Positions 12,531-38,440 of a stretch of 38,741 nt of DNA are shown one piece after another. Both the position numbers and the translations under genes were made by a program. The DNA is taken from the NCBI GenBank assembly GCA_900554225.1, contig USGH01000002.1, positions 1 through 38,741 on the forward strand. The letters run 5' to 3'. The notes beneath the pieces are model-generated. The model was not told the DNA's origin and ran no database searches. It saw only the letters and a program-made list of their open reading frames with translations. Source of the DNA: an uncultured Eubacteriales bacterium (GTDB lineage: Bacteria > Bacillota > Clostridia > Oscillospirales > CAG-272). Each line of letters opens with the position of its first letter. Positions within the stretch are counted from its first letter, which is position 1.

Positions 12531-12568
12531 GTTATGGTTTTTAGAGGATAGTCATTCGTGCGCGTGGA

Positions 12569-19714: not shown

Positions 19715-19798
19715 ATCAGAAAAGCCGAAAAGTGCAGGAATACCAATGGTTTTTTATAGTAGCGTAGGTGACATACTCGAATTTAGAGTGGCTGAAAA

Positions 19799-20878: not shown

Positions 20879-21720
20879 GTAAAATTAGTGAATTTTTTGG
20901 ACTGAATTGCAAAAATACTTCTTTGAATTTCAAAATTGCAATGGATTCTCAATTATGTCCATATACGCAGCGTATCTGTACAAAAATGAGAAAATCAAAG
21001 CCTGATGTCAGAATTGGTACGTGCTCCGTTCAGTATCAAGGACAAGATATAATCATTTGCCCATTTAGACTTTTGGAGCACAATCAGATATTCATAGATT
21101 GCTTGCATCTGTTAACGATGCATGAACCTGGGAACGAGCTTTACTTGATTCCAGAAGTCCAAATTCCAGGTGGACATGTTGATTACTTCTTAGTGTCGGC
21201 TAAAGATAGAAAGATTAAAGATTTCATTGGTATCGAGTTGCAAACAATGGACACAACAGGAACAGTGTGGCCAGAGCGCCAGAAATTCTTAAATGAGCAG
21301 GGAATAGCAGTTGATTCAGCAGATTTAAACAGCAGAAGATCGTTCGGAATGAATTGGAAAATGACTTTAAAAACCATTCTTATTCAAATGCATCATAAGA
21401 GTGAGACATTTGAGAATCTGAACAAGCATTTGGTCCTGATTATCCAAAGACCTTTATATGAACATATGAGAAATGATTTTGACTTTGCCGGAATCGAAGG
21501 TGTTCGTATAGGTGATCCGGTTCATATTCATTCATATAATTTTGAGCAAGGTGAAGATTCGTTGTATTTATCTTTACACACGCGAATTAGTACCGATTCG
21601 TCAGGGATTGCACATTGTCTTGGATTGAATGCAGAAAGAAAGGTTGAACTCGAAGATTTAATACGTATGTTAGAACCAAAGCTCATTGAGGCAAATAGGT
21701 TAAAAATCTCTATAAACTAA
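20875..21720 (+). CDS. Type II restriction endonuclease, NotI-like family
   Basis: The ATGA overlap with the methyltransferase stop indicates translational coupling. An N-terminal ISEFFG block is followed by four Cys (LCPY, RICTK, GTCSV, IICPF), as in the NotI Fe-Cys4 module. GGHVDYFLV ... IGIELQTMDTTG resembles the NotI catalytic block (..LEIQTMD..). The comparison is from memory. Confidence 0.7.
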   Translation: MSKISEFFGLNCKNTSLNFKIAMDSQLCPYTQRICTKMRKSKPDVRIGTCSVQYQGQDIIICPFRLLEHNQIFIDCLHLLTMHEPGNELYLIPEVQIPGGHVDYFLVSAKDRKIKDFIGIELQTMDTTGTVWPERQKFLNEQGIAVDSADLNSRRSFGMNWKMTLKTILIQMHHKSETFENLNKHLVLIIQRPLYEHMRNDFDFAGIEGVRIGDPVHIHSYNFEQGEDSLYLSLHTRISTDSSGIAHCLGLNAERKVELEDLIRMLEPKLIEANRLKISIN

Positions 21721-21869
21721 TCTGTTTTAAAGGAGTTGTTATGTATACAGAAAGAATAGAACTGTATAAAAAAGGGGCATCGTAAAATGAAGTTGCAATA
21801 AAGAGTTTTCAAAAGAAACATATCCGCAAATTGCAATAGTTTTCAAAATACGTTTTTTGCTCTTGATAC

Positions 21870-21907
21870 AAAAACAGAGACCGAAGCCTTCCTGACTTCG
21901 GTCTCTG
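21870..21907 (-). terminator. Rho-independent terminator ending the long minus-strand operon
   Basis: CAGAGACCGAAG-(9 nt)-CTTCGGTCTCTG forms a 12-bp stem. On the minus strand a T5 run follows it. It may also stop plus-strand R-M transcripts. Confidence 0.85.
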
Positions 21908-21972
21908 GGTGCTTTTCAGGGACGTTTTACAGCCTCGTTCAATACCACCGGCTAAGCCAGAGGTGCTGATTT

Positions 21973-22413
21973 TTATTCCGCTTGCTTTATGAATGTGATC
22001 ACCGTGCTGTCAAAGAGATGGCGGTATTCGTAGACATTCTCGTTGATGTTGAACCTGAGATTCGGATATGGCGCGCCGGAATCATTTCCATCGCCGTCTT
22101 TCCCGTCAGTGAAGCAGAGATCTCCGAATTTCTTCAGATGTACGTCTCCCTCAAAGATGAGTTTTCCGTTTTCAGTGACGATCATATGCGGTTTGTCACC
22201 CGAAACCTCGATCACGGCGTTGATGTCCTCGTTCTTCCAGACGCCGTACAGTACGCTTTGATCTATCGGTTTATGGATCATGTCGTCACCGTCATGCGGA
22301 CGCACAGGCTGTGTGTGGCTTTCCCGGAGTTTTCCGCAAGCCCCGAGAGTTATCAGTACAGACATAAGTAGCACACCTCCGATAATAATCCGTCCAGGCC
22401 GCATCGTTTTCAT
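21973..22413 (-). CDS. Small lipoprotein, unknown function
   Basis: Signal peptide and lipobox IIIGGVLLMSVLITLGAC. ATGA start/stop overlap with the upstream gene. Confidence 0.8.
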   Translation of the reverse strand: MKTMRPGRIIIGGVLLMSVLITLGACGKLRESHTQPVRPHDGDDMIHKPIDQSVLYGVWKNEDINAVIEVSGDKPHMIVTENGKLIFEGDVHLKKFGDLCFTDGKDGDGNDSGAPYPNLRFNINENVYEYRHLFDSTVITFIKQAE

Positions 22414-22817
22414 ATGCGTTCGAGGATCATCGTGCCATACGCGATAGTCAGACAGCCGTTCTCATCCACCGGTATTTCGGCGAACGGGTCGACCGTCTCT
22501 CCAAGAACCTCGCCCTCGACTTTGGTATCGTAGTAGAACTTACCATCCTTCTCTTTCCATGAGGTCTGCTCGATCGCGGCGAAACCGTCCTCGTCGATCA
22601 CGGCACCCTGCGACTTCGCAAGCTCGATTTTGTCCTCGGGTACGCGCATCAGTGTGTTCATGAAGCCGTCCTCGGTGAATTCGGTTCTGCTCATGAGCAT
22701 CATGATAATCTCGTCAGCGTGAGCACCATCCGGCAGATTTTCCGGCGTGTAGGACACCATACCGTTGGGGGTGGGGAAGAGCAGCTCCTTGACTTTCCAT
22801 TTTCCGATAATGTTCAT
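22410..22817 (-). CDS. Hypothetical cytoplasmic protein (135 aa)
   Basis: SD GAGAGGAG. Coding-like composition and coupling to the downstream gene. No recognisable motif. Confidence 0.75.
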   Translation of the reverse strand: MNIIGKWKVKELLFPTPNGMVSYTPENLPDGAHADEIIMMLMSRTEFTEDGFMNTLMRVPEDKIELAKSQGAVIDEDGFAAIEQTSWKEKDGKFYYDTKVEGEVLGETVDPFAEIPVDENGCLTIAYGTMILERI

Positions 22818-22867
22818 TGCAATATCTCCTCTCTTTTCGTTGCTTTATCGTAGGTTCCGGAAGCGGA

Positions 22868-23449
22868 TTATGCCCAAGGATCCTCAGATTTCGGTGTGCG
22901 GACACCGGTCAGCAGATACTGCTCCCACAAAAACCATTTGTTGTCAGAACCGCGCTGGCGCAGCTTAATCGGGCGCGGGGAATCTGCTCCGCCGCAGGGG
23001 ATGAAGAGCTTCATGTAGCCGGGCTCATCGTTTGAGACGTGGTTCGACTCGATGACGAGCGTGTAGATCTCGGTCGTCGAATAATAATTAAAAAAAAAAG
23101 AGCCGGTGAAGTAAGTAAAAGGCAGATAGGTCTTTCCGTCGCGGAAGCGGTCGTTCAGGAAGGAGATCTCCTGTCCGTTCAGAGGACGGGGACCACGCAG
23201 CCAGTTCAGCATTTCCGTACCGATCTGACGGTCTGCGGCATACGCGCACAGTGCCAGAACGGTCAGAGCCGCGGTCTGGAACGGGGTATCCATCTTCGCT
23301 TCCGGCAGTGCCTGCATTTCGGCAAGGCTTTCCGGCAGCGCGGAGAACGTGAAGGTCTCCCGTTTGTTGCCGATCGACTGTGCCGCCGTATTCACCGCCT
23401 GCTTGACGGTCCGTTCCGCGGTGTTTTTCAATCTGTCAAAAATACTCAT
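22868..23449 (-). CDS. Hypothetical protein (193 aa) containing an A10/T10 homopolymer tract
   Basis: SD AAGGAGAGG. MSIFDRLKNTAERTVKQAVNTAAQSIG... has an amphipathic N-terminus. The C-terminus GYMKLFIPCGGADSPRPIKLRQRGSDNKWFLWEQ looks like a conserved block. Confidence 0.75.
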   Translation of the reverse strand: MSIFDRLKNTAERTVKQAVNTAAQSIGNKRETFTFSALPESLAEMQALPEAKMDTPFQTAALTVLALCAYAADRQIGTEMLNWLRGPRPLNGQEISFLNDRFRDGKTYLPFTYFTGSFFFNYYSTTEIYTLVIESNHVSNDEPGYMKLFIPCGGADSPRPIKLRQRGSDNKWFLWEQYLLTGVRTPKSEDPWA

Positions 23450-23536
23450 GTAGATCCTCTCCTTGTTTCATTGAAAAGTTTGTTTGTTCTATGTGTCCTC
23501 GCGGCAAGCGCTGGATTCCGGTCAAAGCCGGCGCCT

Positions 23537-24847
23537 TTATCCCACACTCTCTGCGATGACCCAGACCTCATAGTCCTCGCCGTTGCCGGGATACGCATAC
23601 GGCTCTGTGCCTTCCTCGTCAAGGTACGGCGTACCCCACGGGCAGTACTGTTCAAAATCCAGCTCCCAGTTCTCCGGCATATGCCATGTCTCGGTAATAG
23701 ACGCGCCGTCCTCATACACCATGTGCACGGTAACGGAGCGCGGTTCCGTCCGACACGACAAAAGCGGCTCGGGAAGCTCCTGCGCATCCCCGTAATGGAA
23801 CTGCATCATATAGATGGACTGATCGGCTGCGTCAAAGCTCTCGATCTCCTTTATGGCAAGCGTGCCGCGATCCACGGTATACACGTTTGTGGTGTCGCCG
23901 GATTCCACGAAGAACGCTTCCTCCTCCTCCGTATACGACAGTCTGTTCCACTGCGCGCCCGCCTCCGGCAGATATGTGTTGGAGATGTACCCCTCCAGCC
24001 AAGCCGACGTATCGTCTACGGGCATGGCGAGGTATCTGTCCGACGCGGTCGGGTGGCTGTAGCACTGGATCGGGCCGAAATAAGCTGTGCTGCTTACATC
24101 GGTCCAAAGGATGTAGTCAAACTCCGTTCTCCCGATATAGGTGTTCGCTCCGAAGCCGCTTGCGAAATCCTCGGTGAGCCGGAGCGTGCCGTAAATGTCG
24201 AGCAGATTCGAGAGAAGGTTGGCGTCGTACAGCATTTCCGCATTGAAATCAAGCTCGTGGTATTCACTGCGGACAAGCAGCGAGAGTCTGAGCCCGTCGT
24301 CCGCTTCCCTGAATTCGATGCTGAATACGGTGTCCTCTGCGGCGTCAAAGCGCAGATATTCGCGAACCGTCACCGTATAGGACAGCGCGGCGCTTTTTTC
24401 GCACGTCATGGAGGCATTGTAGCCGAGATAGTTGTCCAGATCCGTTAAGAACTGCGGGAAGGACCAGCAGATCACGCCGTCGATCTCCTCACTCGTGATC
24501 CCCAGAGATTCCGGCGGCGCCGCGTCGGTCTCTCCATACAGAAAGATTTTTTGAATCTCCTGCAGCGTGCCCTCGGTCAGAACGGCATCGGATTTCTCCT
24601 CGGCCAGCGCGGTAAAAGCCGCGTACCAGCCCGCCGTATTCCACGCGAATTCCGGTGTGTCGGTAGCTATGATCTCATTCCCTGCGAGCATCCGGTAGGA
24701 AATCGCTGCGGCACGAGCAAGCGTTTCCACATCCTCGAAGTCTTCTGTGTCAACATGGCTCGGCAGTTCCGGCAGGGTGCATCCGGTAAGAGCTGCGGAA
24801 AGGAAAATCAGACACAGCGCGCAGAGCAGTGCAAGCGTTTTTTTCAT
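23537..24847 (-). CDS. Lipoprotein (436 aa), unknown function
   Basis: I place the start at ATG 24847 (MKKTLALLCALCLIFLSAALTGC lipobox, SD AAGGGGG) rather than the track start at 24931. Confidence 0.8.
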   Translation of the reverse strand: MKKTLALLCALCLIFLSAALTGCTLPELPSHVDTEDFEDVETLARAAAISYRMLAGNEIIATDTPEFAWNTAGWYAAFTALAEEKSDAVLTEGTLQEIQKIFLYGETDAAPPESLGITSEEIDGVICWSFPQFLTDLDNYLGYNASMTCEKSAALSYTVTVREYLRFDAAEDTVFSIEFREADDGLRLSLLVRSEYHELDFNAEMLYDANLLSNLLDIYGTLRLTEDFASGFGANTYIGRTEFDYILWTDVSSTAYFGPIQCYSHPTASDRYLAMPVDDTSAWLEGYISNTYLPEAGAQWNRLSYTEEEEAFFVESGDTTNVYTVDRGTLAIKEIESFDAADQSIYMMQFHYGDAQELPEPLLSCRTEPRSVTVHMVYEDGASITETWHMPENWELDFEQYCPWGTPYLDEEGTEPYAYPGNGEDYEVWVIAESVG

Positions 24848-24976
24848 TGTGACCCCCTTATTCCCAAAAAGTTCTTTCGGTTTCCTTCGGATAACGCTGA
24901 TTTCAGGTTGGCTTTTGCGCTGGAAAACCATATATTCGAGCTTTTACGCACAAAACCCGATTGGCGCAGCGCATTC

Positions 24977-25804
24977 TTAGAATTTGCCGCCGCCTCCGCC
25001 ATGGGTCGTGCCGGAAGACGAGGTGTGCGTACTGCTTCCGCCGCTAGAGCTATTGTTTTTCGGCTTCTGCGTTCTTGTGACACTGCGGTACAAAAACATT
25101 TCCCGACTGTCGTTAATATTCAAAGTTCCGGGTTTGATGTAGCTGTCCGCTGCTGCCTGAGTGCGGACGGTGACGAGCTTCGCTTTCATCTTACCAACTG
25201 TGGTGCAGGACAGTATCAGACCGACAATAAGGCTGACAAGTATCCAGGCGGGCGACAGAGGCTCGCGCGGGAGACTACCGATGTCATAAGGCTTATCGGT
25301 CTTTGCCTGTGTGATGAATTCGTCGCACAGAGTGATGTACGTCGCGAAAGCCCCGGCAAAATCACTGTCAGACAGATACGGTACTATCTGCTTCCCAATA
25401 TATTCGATTCCGGCGTCAGTGAATACGGTGATTCCGTAGCCACAGGTCGAGATATACCAGTCGTTGTCCTCCATACTGATGACAAGGATCAGTCCATCGC
25501 GATTCGCGCCGTAACCGAAGCTGCAATAGTCGTAGAGATCGTCCGCGTATTCGACTACGCTTTTTCCGTCGAGCGTATCTGTCGTCGCTATGACCACATC
25601 CATTTTCTGGCGCAGGCTGAGTTCATCGAGTCTCGAGGTCAGCGAGTCGACCTCCTCGTCCGATAACAGGGACGCCATATCCAGGAGTCTGTAGTATTCG
25701 TCCGCGAATCCATTCTCCGCATCTTCGCCTTCCGCGAGTACCGGTACGACCATGAACAGGCAGAGAAATATGGTCAGAATAGGAATTAGTAAGTTCTTTT
25801 TCAT
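24977..25804 (-). CDS. TPM-domain (TLP18.3/Psb32/MOLO-1, YgcG/YdjH-like) membrane protein with Gly/Ser-rich tail
   Basis: Start at ATG 25804 (SD GAGGAGG). Signal/TM segment. LLDMASLLSDEEVDSLTSRLDELSLRQKMDVVIATTDTLDGKSVVEYADDLYDY...NRDGLILVISMEDNDWYISTCGYG is a textbook TPM domain. A C-terminal TM segment is followed by the tail SSSGGSSTHTSSSGTTHGGGGGKF. Confidence 0.9.
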   Translation of the reverse strand: MKKNLLIPILTIFLCLFMVVPVLAEGEDAENGFADEYYRLLDMASLLSDEEVDSLTSRLDELSLRQKMDVVIATTDTLDGKSVVEYADDLYDYCSFGYGANRDGLILVISMEDNDWYISTCGYGITVFTDAGIEYIGKQIVPYLSDSDFAGAFATYITLCDEFITQAKTDKPYDIGSLPREPLSPAWILVSLIVGLILSCTTVGKMKAKLVTVRTQAAADSYIKPGTLNINDSREMFLYRSVTRTQKPKNNSSSGGSSTHTSSSGTTHGGGGGKF

Positions 25805-25814
25805 CTCTGCCTCC

Positions 25815-26909
25815 TCAGAATAACCCTGCAAGGTGCAGCAGCCAGACCGCCGCGTATGTTGCGACGCCGTATATAGCAGTCAAAAGCAGTGTCCATTTTA
25901 CCGCCGCTGATTTGTCGACAGGAAGGTCACCTACGAATTTGCCGGTCTGTCCGTTCATTGCGAAGGTGTATTTACTGCCGTTCCACGTGGTATTCAGGAT
26001 CCACACCGGATAGAGCGCGTATTTTGCCTTGCCGCCGCTGTATTGAACGTGTGTGCTTTCAGCCAGAACCGTTGAGTAGCCCGCGACGGTAGCCGCAAAC
26101 GCAAGCTCCGTGGAACGCTTTACACGGTCGTTTGCGCGATCGATGCTTTGCTCAGCATTAACGTCGTATTTGTCAGCGAGATACCCGGCAAGATACGCAG
26201 TCTGGAAGTCCACTGCACCCTCGTAGCGGTAGGGCTCGACGGACTCCATTAGATCGTCCGGCATTTTTGACGAGCCGTCAACGGGAACGTGTTCAAAGCT
26301 TAGATTTCCGCCACGATGGATCATATAGTAGCTGGTTTCTGTGTAGTTATAATCGCCGGAGCTCCATGTGCGCACCTTGGTTGCACGGTATCGCACCTGT
26401 GCGTCTACATCTGTATCGAAAAGCCAGAACGGTACATACACACCCTTGATCTCGTCGATGTGGTTCTGATCCTTGAATATCTTTGGAAGCAGCAGTTTTC
26501 CTTTCAGATGCTTCAGAAGTCCCGCCTTTGCCGCATTTTTGTCCAGCTGGAAAGGGATCACGAGATCCGGTCTGAGATAACCCGCAAATTGCCCCATCAT
26601 TACTACGGGATTACCGCAGAAGGGACAGGAAGTAGCCGCCATATTTGCATCCCCGACGATTTCGCCGCCGCAGGATTTACAAACATACGATCGCAGTCCG
26701 TCCGTCTCGCCATCATTCCATTCGGTTCCGGCAGAGGTATCCCATGTCATATTGTCCGCCTGCTCGCCCTTGAGTTCGGCGTCGTAGCTCTTGAGTGCCT
26801 CCAGTTCGAATTCGGTGTCGCAGAAAGGACACTTCATTTTCTGGAGTGTGCTGTCAAATGCAATCGCACCACCGCAACAGGGGCATTTATACTCCTGTAA
26901 TGTATCCAT
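25815..26909 (-). CDS. Double zinc-ribbon membrane protein (B. subtilis YdjG-like architecture)
   Basis: Start at ATG 26909 (SD AAGGAG, 7 nt upstream). Two ribbons: CPCCGG..(14)..CPFC and CKSCGG..(13)..CPFCGN. A ~200-aa conserved domain follows, then a C-terminal TM segment (WTLLLTAIYGVATYAAVWLLHLAGLF). Confidence 0.85.
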   Translation of the reverse strand: MDTLQEYKCPCCGGAIAFDSTLQKMKCPFCDTEFELEALKSYDAELKGEQADNMTWDTSAGTEWNDGETDGLRSYVCKSCGGEIVGDANMAATSCPFCGNPVVMMGQFAGYLRPDLVIPFQLDKNAAKAGLLKHLKGKLLLPKIFKDQNHIDEIKGVYVPFWLFDTDVDAQVRYRATKVRTWSSGDYNYTETSYYMIHRGGNLSFEHVPVDGSSKMPDDLMESVEPYRYEGAVDFQTAYLAGYLADKYDVNAEQSIDRANDRVKRSTELAFAATVAGYSTVLAESTHVQYSGGKAKYALYPVWILNTTWNGSKYTFAMNGQTGKFVGDLPVDKSAAVKWTLLLTAIYGVATYAAVWLLHLAGLF

Positions 26910-26958
26910 CAAGTTTCTCCTTGCCCATCGCGGGCATTTTTAATGTGAGATCGAAACT

Positions 26959-27717
26959 TTATCCGGGAAATGCCGCCAAAGCTTCGTCGGCACGGCGTAT
27001 GAGTTCGGTACGGTCGCCATAGATAGCGGCGTCCAAAGATGTAATTGCTTCTCCAACCTTTTCCGATGCATCGACGTCTCCGCGAATTGCCGCGCTGACA
27101 CCTGCCGCCGCACTCTTAATCGCCGCTGCCTGTGCCTTCCAAACGTTTGATGCGTTGCCGAGTGTCTTCTGAACTCCGAAGAGCGTGTCGAAATACTTCT
27201 GCAGCTTCTCGAATGCCTTTATGTTGCTCATCTCGACGGAGATTTCGCTCAATCCTTCTGTGTTGATGAATGCCATGCGGACGAAGGATTTCTTTTGCGG
27301 TTTGCTGTCACCGCCGCTGTTCTCTATGCGTTCCTCATAGTTGTACGCGCGGAGATCGGCAATGCGGTAGACGCAGGCGCGAGTGGTCTTTCCGAACATC
27401 ATGAACTTGTAATCGTTCTGGATGTACGCCATCAGTCCGATGTCCTCAGCAACGTACAACGGAGAACCGAACCTTTTAAGTTTCTTTGTTTTGTCTTTAA
27501 TCTTCTTTCGAGGAACAAAATAATGCTCCCACAGCTTTGTGCCGCGCTCCACTTGAGCGAGGTGCGCTTGGACTCCGTAAAGATTCGCATGCACGTAGTC
27601 GTAGACCTTGAAGCCCTTTTTACGGCAGGTCTTGCGGCAGATGCAGTTCCCGTCTGCAAGCTTCTGTGTCTGGAACAGATTGATTTCCGCTCCGCAAATC
27701 GCACACTTGTTAGCCAT
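26959..27717 (-). CDS. DUF4428-like N-terminal zinc-ribbon protein with helical C-terminus
   Basis: MANKCAICGAEINLFQTQKLADGNCICRKTC shows the CxxC...DGxxC.C pattern. SD AAGGAG. Confidence 0.8.
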   Translation of the reverse strand: MANKCAICGAEINLFQTQKLADGNCICRKTCRKKGFKVYDYVHANLYGVQAHLAQVERGTKLWEHYFVPRKKIKDKTKKLKRFGSPLYVAEDIGLMAYIQNDYKFMMFGKTTRACVYRIADLRAYNYEERIENSGGDSKPQKKSFVRMAFINTEGLSEISVEMSNIKAFEKLQKYFDTLFGVQKTLGNASNVWKAQAAAIKSAAAGVSAAIRGDVDASEKVGEAITSLDAAIYGDRTELIRRADEALAAFPG

Positions 27718-27753
27718 GATAGTTCTCCTTTTTTATTTACCGACAGAGTCGGC

Positions 27754-29025
27754 TTATTTTTTGTTTTTACTACCCGCAAGGGAATAGAATGCGTTGGATA
27801 AGTCGCTGCCCGCATTTATCGGGGCGTGTATTGAGCTGCCGTCCGAAAAAACAAACGATGTGCTGTATGTTGTATCGTCAAGGGCGTATATGTCGCTTTC
27901 CGGCGGTTCTTCATACGACAGAACCTCGCTTATGAGACTTTGTTCCCTGACTATTCGGAGTATTTCCTCTGCTTCTTCGGCGTTGACAGGAAGCTTTTCC
28001 GCATTTGTGTGGTATCCTTCCCAATCTATCGCGCAGTCGAAGGACAGAAACCAATTGCCATTCGCTTTTTCGAGACTGAATGAGTATGAGGAGGAATGAT
28101 CCATGCAGCTACGGCTGATGTTTACCTCAGTTAGGAGTTCCGCCCCGACAAGCCCGTAAAAGCAGCCGATGAGCTCATCCGGCGCGGGGAGGGAAGAGTT
28201 AATCCTGTTTCCGTCGGCAAGGCTGAAATCCGTTATAAACACATTCCGGTCGGTAATACCGTCGATATCCTCCGGCGGCTCGGCATATCCGCTTGCCTTG
28301 GAAATCAGGTCATATTTCGCTATAATCCTGATCACATCGTCTGTCTCCTCATCTGACACACGGACATTTTCAGCTTTTACAGGCAAGCTCTCCTCTCCAA
28401 AGGAGCATTCAAATGAAAAGTACCAGCGGTCGCCGTCTTTTTTCAGAGTGAAGGAATGCGAGCGCCATGGTTCGGTATCCTTTAGACGGATAAATACCGA
28501 GGTGAGCTCATTCTTTATCGCTATCAGCTCGGCTTTTTCAGCGGCTTCATAGTGTCTGTCGGCAAGGTCGCGCATGCAGTCAATAGCCCTGTCGCAAAGC
28601 TCGGTTTCTTTATCAATGCTGTTTCCGTCGATGAAGGTCATTCCGGAGCTGCGCGTCGGTGCATCGGCTATGTGGAAGATATGTATCGGATTGCGGTATT
28701 TCCGCAGCCGCTCTATCTCGCCTTCCTCACGGATGATCTCAAGGATTTCCTCCGCTTCCTCAGTCGGTATCGGGAAGGAACTGAAGGATGTGTAATAGTC
28801 CTCCCGGCTCTTTACCCGGCAGCTTGCGGAGAAGAGCCAGTTTTCATCCTGTTTTTGCAGCGCGAAGGCATACACCGGATCGCTTTCCATGCCGTAGCAG
28901 GAGGTATGGAAAGAAATGATATCATCGACCGTGTGTTTTTTACTGCTTTCGCAGCCAAAGAGTCCGGACACTACAAGGAAAACAGACATTATTATCACCG
29001 CTCTTAATGGTAACTTACGCTTCAT
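27754..29025 (-). CDS. Lipoprotein built from three ~125-aa internal repeats
   Basis: Start at ATG 29025 (MKRKLPLRAVIIMSVFLVVSGLFGC lipobox), 4 nt after the upstream stop. The three modules each contain W(L/Y/F)FS(A/F)(S/E/D)C ... (EE)xxxI(L/I)xI(I/V) ... PPE. Confidence 0.85.
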   Translation of the reverse strand: MKRKLPLRAVIIMSVFLVVSGLFGCESSKKHTVDDIISFHTSCYGMESDPVYAFALQKQDENWLFSASCRVKSREDYYTSFSSFPIPTEEAEEILEIIREEGEIERLRKYRNPIHIFHIADAPTRSSGMTFIDGNSIDKETELCDRAIDCMRDLADRHYEAAEKAELIAIKNELTSVFIRLKDTEPWRSHSFTLKKDGDRWYFSFECSFGEESLPVKAENVRVSDEETDDVIRIIAKYDLISKASGYAEPPEDIDGITDRNVFITDFSLADGNRINSSLPAPDELIGCFYGLVGAELLTEVNISRSCMDHSSSYSFSLEKANGNWFLSFDCAIDWEGYHTNAEKLPVNAEEAEEILRIVREQSLISEVLSYEEPPESDIYALDDTTYSTSFVFSDGSSIHAPINAGSDLSNAFYSLAGSKNKK

Positions 29026-29029
29026 GTTC

Positions 29030-30058
29030 TCAGGACAGCGGTTTGCCGCACTCCGGGCAGAACTTCGGCGGCTTTGCCTGATTCTCCGGGGTGTAGCCGC
29101 AGGACGCACAGCGCACTGTCTTCGGAGCCGGTCTCGCGCATCCGCAGTTCTCGCAGAATTTTTTCGACTGACCCTCAGTCCCGCAGGAAGGGCAGACCCA
29201 CGTCTCATTGCCGGATGTCTGAGCCGCGGCAGCCTCAACAGGCGCGGGCTTGAGAGCTCCGCAGTTGTCGCAGAATTTTGCGCCGGTGGTCTTTGAGCCG
29301 CAGGAAGGGCAGACCCACTCCCCGCCGCTTGGCTGAGAGGTGGGCGCGGAATCGGGACGTTCGTCCTCATCGCGGATCTGATTCATCATTCCGTCGCCGT
29401 CAAAGACACGATGGAGATTGTCGCGGCGCATCAGTATATCCGCAAGCTCGTGCATTTTCTGCTCGTATTCGCGGTAGAGGTCGGTGAATCGGCTGTCAGG
29501 ACGGTTCCCGTCGCTCAGTTCAAGCTCGATCTCGTCAAACCATGGGGAATCAACGTGGATTGTGACATTGAACTCGTAGTCGCACTCGTAGCGGCGCGGA
29601 TTGTAGCTCTTCTCGTTGCCCTCGGAGTCCTTATAGAAGATCTCTTCCTTGTTCTCTCTGATGTCTGTTTCAACATTCCTGACCTGTGAGAAGCTGATCA
29701 GATCCGGATTGCCGCCGCGCCAGTTTGAAAGCCTCGTGACGATGAAACGCTCACTTATCGGGTCAATATAAACTTTCTTGCTTCCGTCAAAGGTGACAGT
29801 CGGCAAGAAATCATCGAGCCGCTGTTTGTTCTCTTCGCGGTAGGCGAGCTGTTCCTTTATCTCAGCGACTGTCGAGTTCCTGCGGTCGCTGAAAAACGGG
29901 GAGAGCTTTCCGGCGCAGTCCTTGCAGAGATTGCCGTCCTCGAGCTTGCGGTTCCCGAGAAAACCGATCTTGGCACCGCAGACATCGCAGTATTTTTTGT
30001 CAAATAATCCTATTATAAGGATCCTCCTTGTTATTTGTCGGTCGTCAGCATGACCCAT
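29030..30058 (-). CDS. DUF4428-like protein with three C-terminal zinc ribbons
   Basis: GLFDKKYCDVCGAKIGFLGNRKLEDGNLCKDCAGKLSPFFSDRR. The tail is WVCPSCG..KFCDNCG, WVCPSCG..KFCENCG and CASCG...PPKFCPECG. The start is uncertain: the only ATG (30058) lies inside the upstream gene without an SD, whereas AAGGAGG (30029-30023) precedes ATA-ATA-GGA (see findings). Confidence 0.8.
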   Translation of the reverse strand: MGHADDRQITRRILIIGLFDKKYCDVCGAKIGFLGNRKLEDGNLCKDCAGKLSPFFSDRRNSTVAEIKEQLAYREENKQRLDDFLPTVTFDGSKKVYIDPISERFIVTRLSNWRGGNPDLISFSQVRNVETDIRENKEEIFYKDSEGNEKSYNPRRYECDYEFNVTIHVDSPWFDEIELELSDGNRPDSRFTDLYREYEQKMHELADILMRRDNLHRVFDGDGMMNQIRDEDERPDSAPTSQPSGGEWVCPSCGSKTTGAKFCDNCGALKPAPVEAAAAQTSGNETWVCPSCGTEGQSKKFCENCGCARPAPKTVRCASCGYTPENQAKPPKFCPECGKPLS

Positions 30059-31335
30059 TTGGCGTTATCCGCATCAAGACTGTATCCACAGAACGAACAG
30101 CAGTGTTTCTCATCCGGAATGAAATTGGCCCCGCAGGACGGACAGTCCTTTTCGATGAAGAGCTTTCCGTCCGTCTTTCTTTTATCAGGATGTCTTGCTC
30201 TTTGCAGATTGAGCGTTCTTCTGATTTTTTTTGTGTATGGTTTTTTATTATCAGGAAGATATGTCTCGCTTCCGTAAACGTCGGCGGTTATCGTGGTTGT
30301 GTCCTCTGTGTTGACGACTTTTTTAAGAATAATCGTCCCTACGCTGTAGTCAAGCAGCTCATCGCTGCCGGCGTCCTTGTAAAGCGCCTCGTTTATGCAG
30401 GAGCGGAGGTAGTTTTCCGAATAAAGGTCAATCCGCTTCGTCAGCTTATCATGTCTCAGCTTCCGGGCAAAAGCCAGAGCCGTCAGTGCCGCGAGCGTCA
30501 GAATCGCCGTGCCAACGCCTGCCGACAGGGATACCTCGGTATCCTTTATCAGGTAGAGACAGAGAAATACGGAGAGAAACAGTATCGTCATACACCCGAG
30601 CAGCAGAAGAAACTTTCTGAGATTGTTCCCGATGTGCTCGTAAATCTCAAAAACCTCGGTCTGCCAGTCGTAAAAATCCGTCTGAATCCTTGCGCCGCAG
30701 TATTCACAGACTACCTGCTGACTGCTGAGCGTGACCTCGGCGCCGCAGGATGGACAGATCACCTTGGTTTTTCCGGCGTAAAAGGTTTTCTTGCCGTCGC
30801 CGCGGTCAACCGTCTGGACATGCCGCGCCTGAAGGACTCGCAGACAGGCGTTCTTTCGGTAGATCTCGTGCTCGACCTCAGAGTTCGTCGCGGAAATCAG
30901 ACGCTCAAGCGCGCAGCACTCAAGCTCGGCTTCACGCCATTCTCTTCCGTCGTCCTCCCATGTCCGGAACTTAATTTTCTGTCCCGAACCGAGGTCAGTC
31001 ACGCGGATGTCCCGGTAAAGTCTGTGCCTTGCAAGACTGTCGATCTGACGCTCGATATTTCTCCGAAAGGTCTTATCCATTCTCGGCGGAAGCAGTTTTT
31101 TGTCCGCTTTTCCGAGAGGGATTAGAACATTTTCAAACGCACTACGGATGTTCCTTCGAAGTCCCATATCCGCAAGCGGCGTGTCGCGTTTTGCCAGAAG
31201 CCTTTTGTATTTCGCCTTTTTCCGGTTTTTCGCGAGGAAACACGAAAAATCGATATCTATGATCTTTTCGCCGATATAATACGCGCAAAGTACGGCGAAA
31301 GCCGCCGCTAGCCAGAATGCGTCTGACAGACTCAT
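30031..31335 (-). CDS. Polytopic membrane protein with two zinc ribbons
   Basis: An N-terminal TM segment, two central TM segments, and the ribbons CPSCGAEV..(9)..CEYCG and CPSCGANF..(6)..CSFCG. Confidence 0.8.
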   Translation of the reverse strand: MSLSDAFWLAAAFAVLCAYYIGEKIIDIDFSCFLAKNRKKAKYKRLLAKRDTPLADMGLRRNIRSAFENVLIPLGKADKKLLPPRMDKTFRRNIERQIDSLARHRLYRDIRVTDLGSGQKIKFRTWEDDGREWREAELECCALERLISATNSEVEHEIYRKNACLRVLQARHVQTVDRGDGKKTFYAGKTKVICPSCGAEVTLSSQQVVCEYCGARIQTDFYDWQTEVFEIYEHIGNNLRKFLLLLGCMTILFLSVFLCLYLIKDTEVSLSAGVGTAILTLAALTALAFARKLRHDKLTKRIDLYSENYLRSCINEALYKDAGSDELLDYSVGTIILKKVVNTEDTTTITADVYGSETYLPDNKKPYTKKIRRTLNLQRARHPDKRKTDGKLFIEKDCPSCGANFIPDEKHCCSFCGYSLDADNAKWVMLTTDK

Positions 31336-31337
31336 AA

Positions 31338-31844
31338 CTACCTCTTGTTCTTGTTATTGCCGCTTTCTTCTGCAGCTTCATCTTTCTTGTCCGGGGTCAC
31401 GACGCTGTGTATCATCACCGGAGTCAGAAAACCGCCGACTACAATAGCCGCACAGTAAAGAAGGAAATCAACAGGATTGCGTTCAGGTGTGAGCTTATAC
31501 ACGCCCTTTTTGGTCCGGTATACCTCGACCGTGACCTTATCGCCTTTGCTTATTTCTCTGTAGAAAATATCTTTTCCGGTGTAGGTCTTTCCGTCGACAT
31601 CAAATGACAGCTTAGCCTCGTACTTCCAGTCGGTTGTGTAGCCTTCGCTGTCCTTTATCGGGATTAACTCGTAATCCTTAACGACCGCGCTGACCTTCCG
31701 CACGTCGTCGGAATTCTTGTACTCATGACTTGCGATCCTGCTTGAGACAACGCCCCAGACGCCAGCCACAAACAAGGCAAGAAAGAGCAGCACCGCCAGA
31801 TAAGAGTATATGTCTTTCTTCGGGGGTGTCGTGGTTTCACTCAT
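31338..31844 (-). CDS. Two-TM membrane protein (DUF3592-like topology)
   Basis: TM segment, ~100-aa beta-rich loop (KDYELIPIKDSEGYTTDWKYEAKLSFDVDGKTYTG), second TM segment, Lys/Glu tail. TAATG overlap with the upstream gene. Confidence 0.8.
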   Translation of the reverse strand: MSETTTPPKKDIYSYLAVLLFLALFVAGVWGVVSSRIASHEYKNSDDVRKVSAVVKDYELIPIKDSEGYTTDWKYEAKLSFDVDGKTYTGKDIFYREISKGDKVTVEVYRTKKGVYKLTPERNPVDFLLYCAAIVVGGFLTPVMIHSVVTPDKKDEAAEESGNNKNKR

Positions 31845-32401
31845 TATGACTCCTCCTCTTCAGAGTCGGGCAGAAGGGACTTGAGAAGCTCGTAAAGGGC
31901 TTTTTCGCCACTTCCGTCGTATTTCACGGATATACTGCCGCCGTCCGCTGTTTTCCAGCATACAGAAAGGCAGCTGCCGGTTTCGTCGTATATCGCTTCA
32001 TTGCCGTGCCGTACCGGGGGAGGACTGTGTCTGCAACCCCGGAGACACCGCTCGATACTATGCCATTGTTCATTGATAAGCGGGACATCCTTACGCTCGA
32101 TATGTCTGTCGTTTTCAGGGACGACATATTTTCCGGAGATGTAACAGCCGTCCTCGTCACACGACAGGTTGAAGACGAAGCACTCGTATTCGTTTGACGC
32201 GCTCTGTCCCCAGTTGAGACTGTAAAGCACAGCATCATAGGGGATCTCCGGCAGTCCGGTTCTGATTGGTGGGATTTCCTTTTTCTTCCCGTGCCAATCC
32301 ATGATCTTAATCATATCGGAATTCCGCCGGAGCAGAACATCCGCCGCTCCGACGGCACACAGAATCAGAATCACAGACAGGATAATGATCAGAACCTTCA
32401 C
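31844..32401 (-). CDS. N-terminally anchored hypothetical protein (185 aa), GTG start
   Basis: MKVLIIILSVILILCAVGAA anchor. The body weakly resembles one repeat module of the 27754-29025 lipoprotein. Confidence 0.7.
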   Translation of the reverse strand: MKVLIIILSVILILCAVGAADVLLRRNSDMIKIMDWHGKKKEIPPIRTGLPEIPYDAVLYSLNWGQSASNEYECFVFNLSCDEDGCYISGKYVVPENDRHIERKDVPLINEQWHSIERCLRGCRHSPPPVRHGNEAIYDETGSCLSVCWKTADGGSISVKYDGSGEKALYELLKSLLPDSEEEES

Positions 32402-32409
32402 TGCCTTAT

Positions 32410-33825
32410 TTACTTACGGTCGTTTTCGTCGAACAGATCGCCGCACTCAGGGCAGAATTTTGGCGGATGAGCCGGATCCTCGGGCTCCCAGCCGCACTTG
32501 TCGCAGCGGTAGAGCGGAGCGCCCTCAGGCTTCTTTGAACCGCAGTTCTGGCAGAATTTTCCCTTGTTCACAGTGCCGCAGGAGCAGGTCCAGCCGTCTT
32601 CAGCCGGTTTCGGAGAACCGCACTCGGGGCAGAACTTTCCGGTCGCCGTAGCGCCGCACTTGCACTTCCACGCGCCTGCCTGAACCGGTTCGGGTTTCTT
32701 CGCGCCGCACTCGGGACAGAACTTACCGGTGGCGGTAGCGCCGCAGGAGCACTTCCAGCCTTCAGCCGCGGGAGCCGCTGCCGGTGCCTGCTGAGCCTGC
32801 TGCTGTTGCTGCTGCTGACCCATCGCGAACAGATTCTGCGCGTTCATTCCGCCGCCTCCGGCGTTCATAGCCATGCCCATTCCCATGAATCCGGTCATAG
32901 CGCCCGCGGAGTTTCCGGCAGCGGTCTTCATAGCGTCAGCCTGTGCGCCGACGAGCGTAGCCGCAGCCATGGTCGGGTCGCGCATGATAGCCGTGCGCTG
33001 AGCCTGTTTGATGAGTTCCTGATCCTCTTCGGGAAGAGTGACTGTCGACAGCGCGATGCTCACGACCTTGATGCCGCGGAGCGAGCCCCACTTCTCGGAG
33101 AGCGACTCATTCATCGCGTTTTCGAGGTCGGTGTTGTGCGACACGATCTGGTTCGGACGGAGCTCGAGATCGGAGAGCTTTCCGAATGCCGGTTGGAGGG
33201 CGGAGATGAACTCGCTCTTCAGCGTCGAATCAAGCTCGCTGCGCTCATAATCGCTTTCGACGTTTCCGCAGACGTTCTTGTAAAAGAGCATCGGGTCGGC
33301 AATCTTATAGGAATAGACGCCGGCACATCTTATCGAGACATCGATATCAAGTCCAATCTTGGAATCAACTACACGGAACGGAACCGGATTTGCCGTGCCG
33401 AACTTGTTATCGAGAATTTCCTTCATGTTGAAGTAGTAAACTCTTTGATCCTTACCGGGATCGCCGCCGTATGTAAAGCGTTTGCCGACCACCTTGAAGG
33501 TTTCCTTTATGCTATCGCCGAGATTTCCTGCAAAGATCGACGGCTCCGTCGAGTTGTCCCAGGTGAACTCACCCGGCTCCGCGCAGAACTCAACGATTTT
33601 GCCCTGCTCGACGATTATCATGCACTGTCCGTCAGCAACGGCGATGCCTGAACCGTTCGAGATGATATTGTCATTTCCCTTTGTGTTTGAGGAACGTCCG
33701 CTCACTCGCTTCTGCCCCTTCTTAACAAGTACCTCCTTAGGTATCGACTCACAGTAGAAAAATTCCTTCCACTGATCCGCGAGAGTTCCTCCGAGCGCAC
33801 CGATTCCTGCTTTGATAAGTCCCAT
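32410..33825 (-). CDS. SPFH/Band-7-type protein (YdjI / virion-core-protein-like) with Gly/Met/Gln-rich linker and four C-terminal zinc ribbons
   Basis: MGLIKAGIGALGGTLADQWKEFFYC... and ...VVSIALSTVTLPEEDQELIKQAQRTAIMRDP are characteristic of the YdjI-type SPFH family. A QQQQQQQAQQ linker follows. The ribbons are 3x W-x-C-x-CG..GKFC-x-x-CG plus a final CDKCG..PPKFCPECG. SD AAAGGAG. Confidence 0.85.
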   Translation of the reverse strand: MGLIKAGIGALGGTLADQWKEFFYCESIPKEVLVKKGQKRVSGRSSNTKGNDNIISNGSGIAVADGQCMIIVEQGKIVEFCAEPGEFTWDNSTEPSIFAGNLGDSIKETFKVVGKRFTYGGDPGKDQRVYYFNMKEILDNKFGTANPVPFRVVDSKIGLDIDVSIRCAGVYSYKIADPMLFYKNVCGNVESDYERSELDSTLKSEFISALQPAFGKLSDLELRPNQIVSHNTDLENAMNESLSEKWGSLRGIKVVSIALSTVTLPEEDQELIKQAQRTAIMRDPTMAAATLVGAQADAMKTAAGNSAGAMTGFMGMGMAMNAGGGGMNAQNLFAMGQQQQQQQAQQAPAAAPAAEGWKCSCGATATGKFCPECGAKKPEPVQAGAWKCKCGATATGKFCPECGSPKPAEDGWTCSCGTVNKGKFCQNCGSKKPEGAPLYRCDKCGWEPEDPAHPPKFCPECGDLFDENDRK

Positions 33826-33888
33826 AGTTATTTCTCCTTTCAGAATTTCAAATAATAATATGATTTGAATGTGTTATCATGAGCGATT

Positions 33889-34746
33889 TTATCCCTCACC
33901 CAGCACAATCCACTTGTCGTCAATAACATCGTACACATATACCTGAGTATCCGAAACGCCATATAGTATTTCCTGTACGAAAGAATCTTCATTGTTGGTT
34001 CCAAGTGCGAAAATAAGACATTCGTCTCCGTCTATCTCTTCCTTGTCGCCCGTATACATCAGTGACATACCTGACTTTATATAGTTCTTTACTTCGTCGG
34101 TTTGGAGCAGCAACTCACGAGCTATCAGCACATCGTCATTTTCATATGAGTAATCCTGATATAAAGTGAGATCCAAACAGCCATCCGTGTCGGCGATGTG
34201 ACCATCCTTCAATGATATTACCGGACGGTAATCGTAGCTTTTTCCGTCCTTTTCGAGTCTAACCAACGTATCCGGGAAGATCTCGCTGACATTGCAGCGC
34301 AGAATAATGGACTCGTTTGCCTTTGTCTCGTATACCGGCATGTCGGTATGATCGTCATATTCGGCGTTCTCGCTCATGGTTACCGAATATACCGTCATAG
34401 ACCATCCCTCCGCAGGCACAAGCGCGTATATCTCCTGCCCTCCGCAGTCTACGATATCAACGGATTCCTGAATGAAGGGATACTCACTTTCTAAAGAACT
34501 CTTCAACAGATTATTGATATCATCTTTAGAAGCGTCATATTCGACATAACCGAGAAAAACCGTGCCGATAATACATTCCTCGTCTTTTAGAAGCTTTTGT
34601 ATTGAAGATAAATTCTTTTTTTCATCAACCGAACTTGTTTCACTGCCTGATTTTGTTTCTGCGACAGCATCCTTGTGTGTGTCTTTACAGCCGCAAAGCA
34701 ACATTGCAAGAAGCAGACAAATAAATAATGTTCGCATTCTTTTCAT
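33889..34746 (-). CDS. Lipoprotein (285 aa), unknown function, low-GC
   Basis: I place the start at ATG 34746 (MKRMRTLFICLLLAMLLCGC lipobox). SD AGGAGTG overlaps the upstream stop. Confidence 0.8.
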   Translation of the reverse strand: MKRMRTLFICLLLAMLLCGCKDTHKDAVAETKSGSETSSVDEKKNLSSIQKLLKDEECIIGTVFLGYVEYDASKDDINNLLKSSLESEYPFIQESVDIVDCGGQEIYALVPAEGWSMTVYSVTMSENAEYDDHTDMPVYETKANESIILRCNVSEIFPDTLVRLEKDGKSYDYRPVISLKDGHIADTDGCLDLTLYQDYSYENDDVLIARELLLQTDEVKNYIKSGMSLMYTGDKEEIDGDECLIFALGTNNEDSFVQEILYGVSDTQVYVYDVIDDKWIVLGEG

Positions 34747-34750
34747 AACA

Positions 34751-35146
34751 TCACTCCTGATTTTCAAGACTTGTTATCACTGCGGCAAGGAAATTTTCAC
34801 TTACCGATGTAAATAGTATTGAGTCTGCGTATCCGGATTGTTTTGCTTTGACTATCTGCTCGGCGAGCTTTTTGTCTGCATCACCGTCAGTCATGAATAT
34901 TATTTTGCATTCCGGATTGTTTTTCCTTATTTTGTTTGAAAGCTCAAGCCTATCATTAAGCATCCAAGGAGAATATCCGGTTACTTCCATTATCACAACT
35001 CGTGGCTTGTGTATCTCACAGATATCTTTTGTCAGATTTGGAGTTTTCGATATGATGATCTGATGATTATCAAGTTCCTGGAGCATGGCGCGTTCAAGCA
35101 GTCTTGCATATAACACACTCTGCATATCTAAAACAATCACTGTCAT
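34751..35146 (-). CDS. Stand-alone degenerate receiver (REC-like) domain protein
   Basis: It aligns by eye to CheY. VIVLDMQS corresponds to VVDDFS, VVIMEVTG to FVISDWNM (the phospho-Asp position is Glu), KIIFMTDG to PVLMVTAE (Thr conserved), and SILFTS to YVVKPF (Lys lost). The probable start is ATG 35146. Confidence 0.65.
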   Translation of the reverse strand: MTVIVLDMQSVLYARLLERAMLQELDNHQIIISKTPNLTKDICEIHKPRVVIMEVTGYSPWMLNDRLELSNKIRKNNPECKIIFMTDGDADKKLAEQIVKAKQSGYADSILFTSVSENFLAAVITSLENQE

Positions 35147-35210
35147 TAAAATTTTCACCACCTTTTTCAGTATACGGAAAATGACAGATTCACATACCGT
35201 ATATTGTTTT

Positions 35211-37940: not shown

Positions 37941-38015
37941 TTTGCGTTTCTCCTTTGTAGTAATGGATTTTGCTCGCTTAACATTCAGGAGACGTACCCA
38001 TCATCCTATGATACT

Positions 38016-38044
38016 ATTATAATGCATATTTTGGCTCTTGTCAC
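38016..38044 (-). promoter_or_regulatory. Promoter for the SLH-protein gene
   Basis: On the minus strand: GTGACA (38044-38039), 17-nt spacer, TATAAT (38021-38016). Confidence 0.55.
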
Positions 38045-38070
38045 TATCACAAGTGTCAGTTGTTTCGGTA

Positions 38071-38125
38071 AAAACAAAAAAATCCCCCGGAGCCCATGGA
38101 AAAGCGTTTCCAAAGGCTCCGGGGG
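38071..38125 (-). terminator. Rho-independent terminator after the 100-aa ORF
   Basis: CCCCCGGAGCC-(20 nt, itself GGAAA/TTTCC paired)-GGCTCCGGGGG. On the minus strand it is followed by ATTTTTTTGTTTT. Confidence 0.85.
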
Positions 38126-38137
38126 TAAAGCAGTTCT

Positions 38138-38440
38138 TTATCTGCTGACGATACTTCTGTAGCTGGCGCGGACAAGTTTTAAGAGCAGACGGTCGATCCC
38201 GCCGCAGCTTCGGTCTGCCGCCAGATAGTCGTTCCGCATCCCGTTTAAGCACAGCGTGGCGTACTGGTACTCCTCATCGTTCAGGTACAGTTTGTGCTTT
38301 GGCATACGGAGGACTCTATCAAGAAACGGCTGCAGCTGGCCGGATAGCTCCGGCCCTGCTTCTTCCTGTGCGCTGCGCAGCGCCGTGGCCAGGATGTTTT
38401 GGTCCCCGCCGGTCATCTTCACCATCCGCTGCTTTGTCAT
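38138..38440 (-). CDS. Hypothetical small protein (100 aa)
   Basis: The ORF has a terminator immediately downstream. SD AGGATGGGG precedes the ATG. No motif recognised. Confidence 0.6.
   Translation of the reverse strand: MTKQRMVKMTGGDQNILATALRSAQEEAGPELSGQLQPFLDRVLRMPKHKLYLNDEEYQYATLCLNGMRNDYLAADRSCGGIDRLLLKLVRASYRSIVSR

Follow-up and report, generated by a model that had tools for sequence, protein, structure and literature searches.

The analyzed window, that is, the whole 38,741-nt stretch of contig USGH01000002.1 (assembly GCA_900554225.1) of an uncultured Eubacteriales bacterium, carries on its minus strand a long operon encoding SPFH, TPM, and zinc-ribbon proteins together with lipoproteins, which, judging by gene content and order, is the PspA-less class of a gene cluster that also has a PspA-containing class. 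Fifteen open reading frames (ORFs) formed an unbroken chain (35146–21973); they are lettered, from the first transcribed to the last, O, N, M, L, K, J, I, H, G, F, E, D, C, B, and A, and all of them were found as described in an earlier interpretation made without database searches (hereafter, the sequence-only reading). The distances at the junctions, which were computed from the ORF coordinates and the gene calls of an identical contig, were 4 nt (O–N), 8 nt (M–L), 2 nt (K–J), 4 nt (I–H), and 10 nt (F–E), with intermediate gaps in H–G (36 nt) and G–F (46 nt), whereas ORFs L/K, J/I, and B/A overlapped by 1 nt (TAATG at 31844), 28 nt, and 4 nt (ATGA), respectively. Exactly four spacers of 50–129 nt were present, namely, N–M (63 nt), E–D (129 nt), D–C (87 nt), and C–B (50 nt), so that the overlaps and the number of spacers corresponded to those reported earlier. 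The terminator scan revealed no terminator-like sites on the minus strand in any spacer of the operon, a weak promoter-like match was found in the N–M spacer, and no RNA family was detected in the operon by the Rfam scan, the only match of which was a tRNA at 1906–1979.

Two details at the ends of the operon had to be corrected. The perfect stem of the final terminator was 14 bp, not 12 bp, and was followed by a T-run. The start had been placed at 35146; however, the only conserved operator/promoter (38060–38016) precedes not gene O but gene P, which lies on the same strand and encodes an SLH-domain protein. According to this arrangement, the putative transcription unit comprises 16 genes and is approximately 16.2 kb in size (38060–21875), with the SLH gene being the first, and, since the operator sits upstream of the SLH gene rather than of O, this gene was presumably inserted behind the operator in this lineage (Table 1). 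The 64-nt spacer between the SLH gene and O contained a 7-bp inverted repeat, TATACGG-N17-CCGTATA (35162–35210), which was devoid of a T-run and was not classified as a terminator by the scan.

Table 1. Features of the operon and its control region, in the order of transcription (aa, amino acids; TM, transmembrane; AF2, AlphaFold2; RR, response regulator).
Feature	Coordinates	Strand	Evidence
Imperfect palindromic operator ACTGACAC-TT-GTGATAGT (= ACTGACACTTGTGATAGTGACA)	38039..38060	-	3' end GTGACA is the -35 hexamer
Sigma-70-type promoter GTGACA, 17 nt, TATAAT (38021-38016)	38016..38044	-	11/12 positions; best match in 20800-38741
P, 909-aa secreted SLH-domain cell-wall protein, lineage-specific first cistron	35211..37940	-	SLH, E = 1.2e-23
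O, 131-aa pseudo-receiver	34751..35146	-	hhalign against RR receiver domain, 95.9%, 120 columns
N, conserved fast-evolving lipoprotein	33889..34746	-	Lipobox LLCGC
M, SPFH (Band_7_1) protein of the cytoplasm; Gly/Met/Gln linker, four zinc ribbons; homologous to YdjI	32410..33825	-	Band_7_1, E = 2.1e-17
L, 185-aa signal-anchored protein, lineage-specific	31844..32401	-	ORF translation, topology prediction
K, two-TM protein, beta-rich loop probably extracytoplasmic; invariant partner of J	31338..31844	-	Topology, locus conservation
J, polytopic zinc-ribbon membrane protein; family marker	30031..31335	-	Topology prediction, AF2 model, Foldseek
I, DUF4428 domain, central domain, three zinc ribbons with paralogues in the M tail	29030..30058	-	DUF4428, E = 4.4e-17
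H, lipoprotein with three repeats of a ~130-aa domain	27754..29025	-	ORF translation, sequence comparison
G, 252-aa cytoplasmic protein with DUF4428-like N-terminus	26959..27717	-	DUF4428, E = 2e-5, below the Pfam cut-off
F, YdjG homologue: two N-terminal zinc ribbons, globular domain, C-terminal TM anchor	25815..26912	-	YDJG_BACSU, E = 3e-80
E, YdjH homologue: signal peptide, TPM domain, one TM helix, Ser/Gly tail	24977..25804	-	TPM_phosphatase, E = 1.3e-30
D, 436-aa lipoprotein, lineage-specific	23537..24847	-	Lipobox, locus mapping
C, DUF6935 cytoplasmic protein	22868..23449	-	E = 1.8e-56
B, 135-aa cytoplasmic protein	22410..22817	-	ORF translation, locus mapping
A, 146-aa lipoprotein, lineage-specific	21973..22413	-	Lipobox, locus mapping
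Intrinsic terminator	21875..21907	-	Perfect 14-bp stem, then UUUUUGU

Comparative analysis with the proteins of Bacillus subtilis was performed using YdjG and YdjH sequences verified by exact look-up (YDJG_BACSU and YDJH_BACSU, both titled 'PspA localization factor') and YdjI and PspA sequences read from the B. subtilis locus with pspA, ydjG, ydjH, and ydjI (L086). Protein F had 35% identity with YdjG over 354 aa (E = 3e-80), protein E had 25% identity with YdjH end to end over 268 aa (E = 6e-17), and protein M had 20% identity with YdjI over 356 aa (E = 8e-8), with the same order of the Band_7_1 domain, the Gly/Met/Gln-rich linker, and the zinc ribbon in M and YdjI. By these alignments, F, E, and M are genuine homologues of YdjG, YdjH, and YdjI, respectively; the three families had been recognized in the sequence-only reading, as had the SPFH and TPM domains in M and E, although their dispersal in the operon was confirmed only for M, since F and E are still adjacent like ydjG and ydjH. 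In B. subtilis, YdjG, YdjH, and YdjI are required for the membrane foci of PspA, YdjG/H anchor soluble YdjI, and two-hybrid interactions were found among these proteins (PMC8581546). Ravi et al. regard the YdjGHI triad as a Firmicute partner set of PspA and interpret the Band-7 and TPM proteins as chaperone-like assembly factors (PMC11237479).

A PspA/IM30 gene was not found in the window using phmmer and tblastn with B. subtilis PspA, and the genes at both ends of the operon did not encode PspA, in accordance with the absence of this gene noted earlier. The same query matched only one of the 85 analyzed loci (±10 kb), namely, L059 of Butyricicoccus pullicaecorum, and the remaining 84 were without pspA. 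In L059, the PspA_IM30 gene (E = 7e-29) was located at 6618–7379, inside the cluster and directly after M, in the order F-E-lipoprotein-N'-C-M-PspA-ZnR-N-K-J (ZnR, zinc ribbon). When the PspA of L059 was used as a query, more than 100 clusters of 90% identity were found at 81–90% identity. Loci L092 and L093 had the order GerE-type regulator-130 aa-F-E-lipoprotein-C-M-PspA-x-C'-N-K-J, and loci L094 and L095 had the same order minus K-J, with pspA at 10001–10891 in L092 and 10001–10717 in L094. Proteins M and J of L092 were each about 60% identical to those of the window, and the pspA-bearing sister class as a whole was headed by a 524-aa GerE-type regulator in place of a two-component module. 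Because the sister class carries pspA right after the SPFH gene, the operon of the window can be regarded as a PspA-less variant of a PspA-linked system, and by gene order the sister-class pspA is stronger evidence of its link to the Psp network than the domain content by itself; the composition, which had been thought to match no known system, thus has a pspA-carrying counterpart within the same cluster.

The distribution of the cluster was assessed by an alignment-based scan with one genome per species, in which J served as the probe because it has no Pfam family, and the window proteins were mapped onto the loci found twice, by tblastn and then by hidden Markov models built from the loci. 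The scan revealed 78 loci (bins and isolates) labelled Oscillospiraceae, Ruminococcaceae, Lachnospiraceae, and Butyricicoccaceae, with stable synteny in two orders and with genus labels such as Faecalibacterium, Blautia, Coprococcus, Ruminococcus, Mediterraneibacter, Faecalicatena, Massiliimalia, and Butyricicoccus. In both mappings, the recurring order was HK-X2-RR-O-N-M-K(-K)-J-(I-H-G)-F-E-(C-B), where HK, X2, and RR are two kinases and a regulator. The K-J core was invariant, and K was found in 45 of the 46 loci with sufficient upstream flank, N being present in 31 of these loci. Genes A, D, L, and the SLH gene were lineage-specific to the window; full-length P was found only in the window and in gut-metagenome contigs L001 and L002, which were approximately 100% identical to the window at 18987–38092. 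In some loci of the Ruminococcus and Coprococcus type, TM2-domain proteins and other proteins replaced M, F, and E. Of the 38 full-flank loci, 22 had the complete M/F/E set and the other 16 had none of the three, so that incomplete sets did not occur among them. The proposal that the genes form one conserved unit was therefore upheld by an order kept in 78 loci of four families; meanwhile, the invariant J-K core, the SLH first cistron, the kinase/kinase/regulator module, and the operator had been overlooked.

The nearest genome was that of Clostridium sp. CAG:138 (L008, J identity 90%), in which the cluster (9125–14832) was degraded by two separate deletions. One removed the greater part of the SLH gene, all of O, N, and M, and a portion of L, and the other removed G, F, E, and D with a portion of C, so that P'-K-J-I-H-B-A were left, with a 124-aa remnant of P. 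The flanks of the cluster varied from guaA and a restriction–modification pair in the window to SCIFF/SecDF/RecJ/RelA in one Lachnospiraceae-type set and AhpC elsewhere; since the flanks differ between lineages, it is the cluster, and not the neighbourhood, that is maintained. The median identity to the window was 84% for M, 80% for C, 77% for F, 72% for G, 60% for I, 58% for J, 56% for E, 44% for K, and 37% for both N and O, which indicates that the predicted cytoplasmic lattice is under very strong constraint and that the parts predicted to be exposed diverge quickly. The J family was small, with 264 representatives (E ≤ 1e-3) among 1.84 billion 50%-identity clusters, and its divergent paralogues (31–38% identity) lay alone, outside gene clusters of the kind described here. 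In L088 (4372–7449), two J-like genes (31–38% identical) flanked an acylphosphatase gene beside a copper-ATPase/CsoR locus in which the other genes of the cluster were absent.

In relatives, the cluster was preceded by three genes encoding a HisKA_7TM kinase (HK), a second kinase (X2), the kinase core of which was related to that of HK (hhalign 96.3%), and a REC+GerE regulator of the NarL/LuxR type. This module was found in 26–27 of the 46 loci with sufficient upstream flank and also in L001 and L002. The operator of the window was a single match (0.02 expected by chance) and aligned with the operators located in relatives between the regulator gene and the first gene of the operon. In relatives, the palindrome overlaps the -35 hexamer, and two types were distinguished, namely, TTACTGGCAC-AA-GTGCCAGTGACA followed by 17 nt and TACAAT and GTCCTC-N6-GAGGACAGACA, in a set that includes Faecalicatena, Mediterraneibacter, Blautia, and Yeguia loci. 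In 1.36 Mb of loci, the operator motifs occurred once per locus in 33 loci, always on the strand of the operon and 49–270 nt upstream of its first gene. The sequences ACTGGCAC-N2-GTGCCAGT and the window's ACTGACAC-TT-GTGATAGT are candidate targets of the cognate regulator, and we infer that it binds the palindrome and activates the operon. It should be noted that the spacer between the regulator gene and O in L003, L019, L034, L052, L065, and similar loci (Faecalicatena, Blautia, Yeguia, Dorea, and metagenome contigs) contained a leader motif, CATCGGATATATC(G/A), which was distinct from the operator and separated by only a few bases from the downstream ribosome-binding site of O.

The other products of the operon were characterized by domain, topology, and model analysis. 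The phospho-acceptor position of O (the end of beta-3, Asp in CheY-like receivers) was occupied by Glu in 29 of 29 distinct family sequences; since O is a receiver homologue with invariant Glu at this site, it can be classified as a pseudo-receiver, in line with the degenerate receiver domain recognized earlier. For the AF2 model of N (pLDDT 75), Foldseek revealed no significant similarity to PDB structures (the best E was 0.013, at a low probability), and the PDB sequence search with M and F gave nothing useful. No TM segment was predicted in M; in F, a TM helix was located at 341–361 and four CxxC motifs were found. The earlier designation of K as DUF3592-like was weakly supported, with 19 of the 25 family members matching, all below the cut-off (best E = 1.8e-4). 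Protein J begins with TM1 and an NTF2/Tim44-like domain into which a zinc ribbon is inserted; a TM hairpin then leads to another alpha+beta domain, and a further zinc ribbon lies at the C-terminus (AF2 model, pLDDT 75.8, pTM 0.68). The first soluble domain of J matched in Foldseek the ARC6/PARC6 intermembrane domain, the Tim44 C-terminal domain, mL45, and VirB8 (probability 0.97–1.0, E from ~1e-3 to 1e-2), all of which are membrane-proximal modules. When the families of the cluster were compared all against all by hhalign, F and J had only the zinc ribbon in common and not the globular domains.

Proteins I and M contained a paralogous zinc-ribbon array (47% identity over 111 aa), which suggests a common docking partner. 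Of the two proteins described as DUF4428-like, I was confirmed, and the assignment of G was weak, being below the Pfam cut-off, with the N-termini of G and I related by hhalign (93%). DUF4428 constitutes the N-terminal region in those homologues of the membrane nuclease SNIPE that have no TM helix (bioRxiv 10.1101/2025.11.03.685801), and because it fills this region in TM-less homologues, its position is compatible with a role in membrane targeting. In the relatives, gene I starts with ATG (protein MGLFDKKYC...), whereas the window has ATA at this site (30017–30029), 6 nt after a perfect Shine–Dalgarno sequence AAGGAGGA; the sole in-frame ATG (30058) has no ribosome-binding site and gives the 28-nt overlap with J. 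Three proteins had been left unassigned, one of which, C, belongs to DUF6935. A 41-nt segment of gene C with a run of ten A (23065–23105) was missing from L001, splitting the gene into ORFs of 131 and 48 aa; the gene is intact in the window, and a deletion breakpoint of CAG:138 is also located here, at a stretch of ~20 nt resembling one in gene G. In the analysis of proteins O to F against NCBIfam, no curated family was found, only zinc-ribbon or signal-peptide noise. Thirteen zinc ribbons were counted by the CxxC...CxxC motif in five proteins (four each in M and I, two each in J and F, and one in G), and four lipoboxes were found (A, D, H, and N), both numbers being as reported in the sequence-only reading. 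According to the topology predictions, M, tail-anchored F, I, G, C, B, and O are cytoplasmic, the TPM domain and the four lipoproteins are extracytoplasmic, and the loop of K and protein L are probably extracytoplasmic as well.

Outside the operon, a 38%-GC islet (19799–21720) encoding an N6/N4 DNA methylase and a NotI-like endonuclease was located between the terminator and guaA in convergent orientation to the operon and has the appearance of a type II restriction–modification system gained by horizontal transfer. In addition, a 45%-GC block (4001–10000) in the ~56%-GC background contained genes for a GH20 glycosidase and for a 1146-aa protein that weakly matches endospore appendages (Enas).

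Taken together, the homologies, the conserved gene order, the operator, and the linkage of pspA in the sister class point to an inducible membrane-maintenance scaffold, a PspA-less variant of the PspA–YdjGHI system encoded by one 16-gene unit that is a lineage variant of the gut-Clostridia cluster, and we assign this interpretation a probability of roughly 0.55; an envelope role was thus the best-supported part of what had been proposed. In such a scaffold, a membrane signal would be sensed by the 7TM histidine kinase and the second kinase of the cluster (directly upstream in L001 and L002, outside the window), and the NarL/LuxR-type regulator would bind the palindrome over the -35 hexamer and turn the operon on. 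Tail-anchored F and the bitopic TPM protein E would recruit the soluble SPFH protein M, as YdjG/H do YdjI, and M would oligomerize as a scaffold at the cytoplasmic face of the membrane, where I, G, and C would also dock. J, with its Tim44/NTF2-like domain, and its two-TM partner K may represent a second, invariant membrane anchor, while the TPM domain, the loop of K, the fast-evolving lipoproteins, and, in this lineage, the SLH protein would contact the wall on the outer face. The assembly might then stabilize or reorganize the stressed membrane either alone or by recruiting a PspA/IM30 encoded elsewhere, so that PspA would be an optional client, which the sister class encodes in cis and this organism possibly in trans.

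Several observations weigh against this interpretation. M is only 20% identical to YdjI. J-K is kept without M, F, and E in 16 of the 38 full-flank loci, because of which the J-K and M/F/E modules may have separable functions, and in L009 and L010, which have shorter flanks, F and E are kept and M and most of I are deleted. Moreover, the window diverges from L001 and L002 upstream of 38092, where those contigs carry the regulator gene, and two-component control in this strain is therefore an assumption. The divergence point falls within the 3' arm of the hairpin that terminates the regulator gene in L001 and L002, and in the window, the regulator is replaced at 38093–38741 by a 100-aa ORF (38138–38440, minus strand) and the C-terminus of another ORF. 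Nothing was found for these 649 nt by blastn against phages, tblastn against plasmids, Pfam, or exact look-up of the 100-aa ORF; the segment may have arisen by an insertion or by a rearrangement in this strain that parted the operon from the regulator genes. A more tentative possibility is that the cluster encodes a membrane-maintenance machine of gut Clostridia independent of PspA, in which a nearly invariant SPFH/zinc-ribbon lattice in the cytoplasm (M, F, C, G, and I) would be coupled through the Tim44-like J-K pair to the rapidly diversifying surface lipoproteins and switched on by a dedicated circuit of two kinases and the pseudo-receiver; if true, it would represent a self-contained alternative to Psp/ESCRT-III membrane repair.

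Among the other explanations, cell-surface assembly or quality control, in which the TPM and SPFH proteins would help insert, fold, or turn over the lipoproteins and the SLH protein, is possible, with less support than the Psp link, and we consider it unlikely. The extracytoplasmic cargo-like proteins A, D, H, N, L, and P do differ from lineage to lineage while the core stays the same, the insertion site of the SLH gene is immediately downstream of the operator, and TPM and Band-7 proteins have been proposed as assembly chaperones of membrane complexes (PMC11237479); however, those homologues that have been investigated experimentally function in the stress response of PspA (PMC8581546), the sister class gains pspA and not a secretion or sorting gene, and the unit has no sortase, Lgt/Lsp, or Sec component. 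The defence of the abortive-infection type suggested in the sequence-only reading became highly improbable; in such a membrane-associated anti-phage system, the SPFH and zinc-ribbon proteins would sense phage attack at the envelope. The restriction–modification pair just beyond the terminator (N6_N4 methylase and NotI-like endonuclease, 38% GC) would fit such a role, as would DUF4428 as the N-terminal module of some SNIPE homologues (bioRxiv 10.1101/2025.11.03.685801). However, the pair is lineage-specific, and no nuclease, NTPase, toxin, or pore-former domains were found in Pfam and NCBIfam. In PADLOC-DB 2.0, to which the ten proteins O to F were compared, no model matched beyond zinc-ribbon similarity, the sole matches being those of J to Cas12f and PtuB (E = 1.7e-4 or weaker, 20–70 residues). 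Furthermore, the gene order is stable in two orders of Clostridia (78 loci) beside varied housekeeping genes, only one match was found in 2.9 million viral contigs, that one without phage genes, and the core proteins are 77–84% identical between families, which is the opposite of fast-turnover defence genes.

It is scarcely credible that the operon is a conventional Psp locus with pspA just outside the inspected region. Although pspA does lie inside the cluster in B. pullicaecorum and L092–L095, the window has no PspA-like ORF, 84 of the 85 loci (±10 kb) are without pspA, and the unit is bounded by the operator/promoter and a strong terminator. The neighbours at both ends are also not PspA, namely, the two kinase genes and the regulator gene upstream (in the identical contigs) and the convergent restriction–modification pair and guaA downstream. 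An accidental neighbourhood of unrelated transcription units has an equally negligible probability: the four 50–129-nt spacers and the weak promoter-like match between N and M could be read in this way, but the order is kept in 78 loci, start and stop codons overlap at several junctions, the spacers have no terminator, and there is a single conserved operator. The cluster-bearing genera include non-sporulating taxa, for example, Faecalibacterium. A sporulation or germination role, considered because Ravi et al. (PMC11237479) relate the YdjG domain to YpeB, was rejected as unsupported, since there are no sporulation genes in the unit and such taxa are among the carriers of the cluster.

To our knowledge, the YdjGHI proteins have been known from B. 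subtilis alone and solely as helpers of PspA. A full-text literature search returned work on YdjGHI–PspA and comparative papers on the PSP system, and in these the enlarged, two-component-linked, J-K-centred cluster and its PspA-less form were undescribed. The Ydj trio belongs here to a much larger, strongly conserved cluster, which is found in many abundant human-gut Clostridia and exists with and without pspA, providing a natural comparison for what SPFH/TPM/zinc-ribbon scaffolds do alone. The analysis also names unstudied partners (J, K, the pseudo-receiver O, and the DUF4428 and DUF6935 proteins) and supplies a candidate regulator, an operator sequence, and a promoter. The cluster may bear on the resistance of gut anaerobes to bile, antimicrobial peptides, and membrane-active drugs.

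Among known systems, the membrane-maintenance scaffold proposed here resembles LiaFSR–LiaIH in that a NarL/LuxR-type regulator lies beside, and probably drives, an operon for a Psp-related sub-membrane protective assembly; however, the sensors are a HisKA_7TM kinase and a second kinase without LiaF, and the targets are SPFH, TPM, and zinc-ribbon proteins instead of LiaI and LiaH, a PspA homologue. As in flotillin/NfeD and HflK/C, the SPFH protein is expected to oligomerize at the membrane with dedicated membrane partners, whereas M is of the Band_7_1 type and has no membrane anchor of its own, no NfeD partner, and no associated protease. The main soluble domain of J is similar in its predicted fold to Tim44, ARC6/PARC6, and VirB8, but J differs in its three TM helices, in the zinc ribbon inserted into it, and in the presence of a second domain, and the likeness is limited to the fold, with no detectable sequence relationship. 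With the pspA–ydjGHI operon of B. subtilis, the window operon shares full-length homologues of all three Ydj proteins with the same architectures: in F/YdjG, a globular domain preceded by two zinc ribbons and followed by a TM helix at the C-terminus; a signal peptide, a TPM domain, a TM helix, and a low-complexity tail in E/YdjH; and a Band_7_1 SPFH domain, a low-complexity linker, and a C-terminal zinc ribbon in M/YdjI. The adjacency of ydjG and ydjH is retained as F-E (10-nt gap), whereas the contiguous G-H-I order is lost, with M located ~5.5 kb upstream of F-E, beyond L, K, J, I, H, and G. The window operon differs further in that it has no pspA, M has four zinc ribbons compared with one in YdjI, genes for J, K, I, G, C, B, O, L, the four lipoproteins, and the SLH protein are added, and control is apparently exerted not by sigma-W but by a two-kinase/NarL-type module and a palindromic operator.

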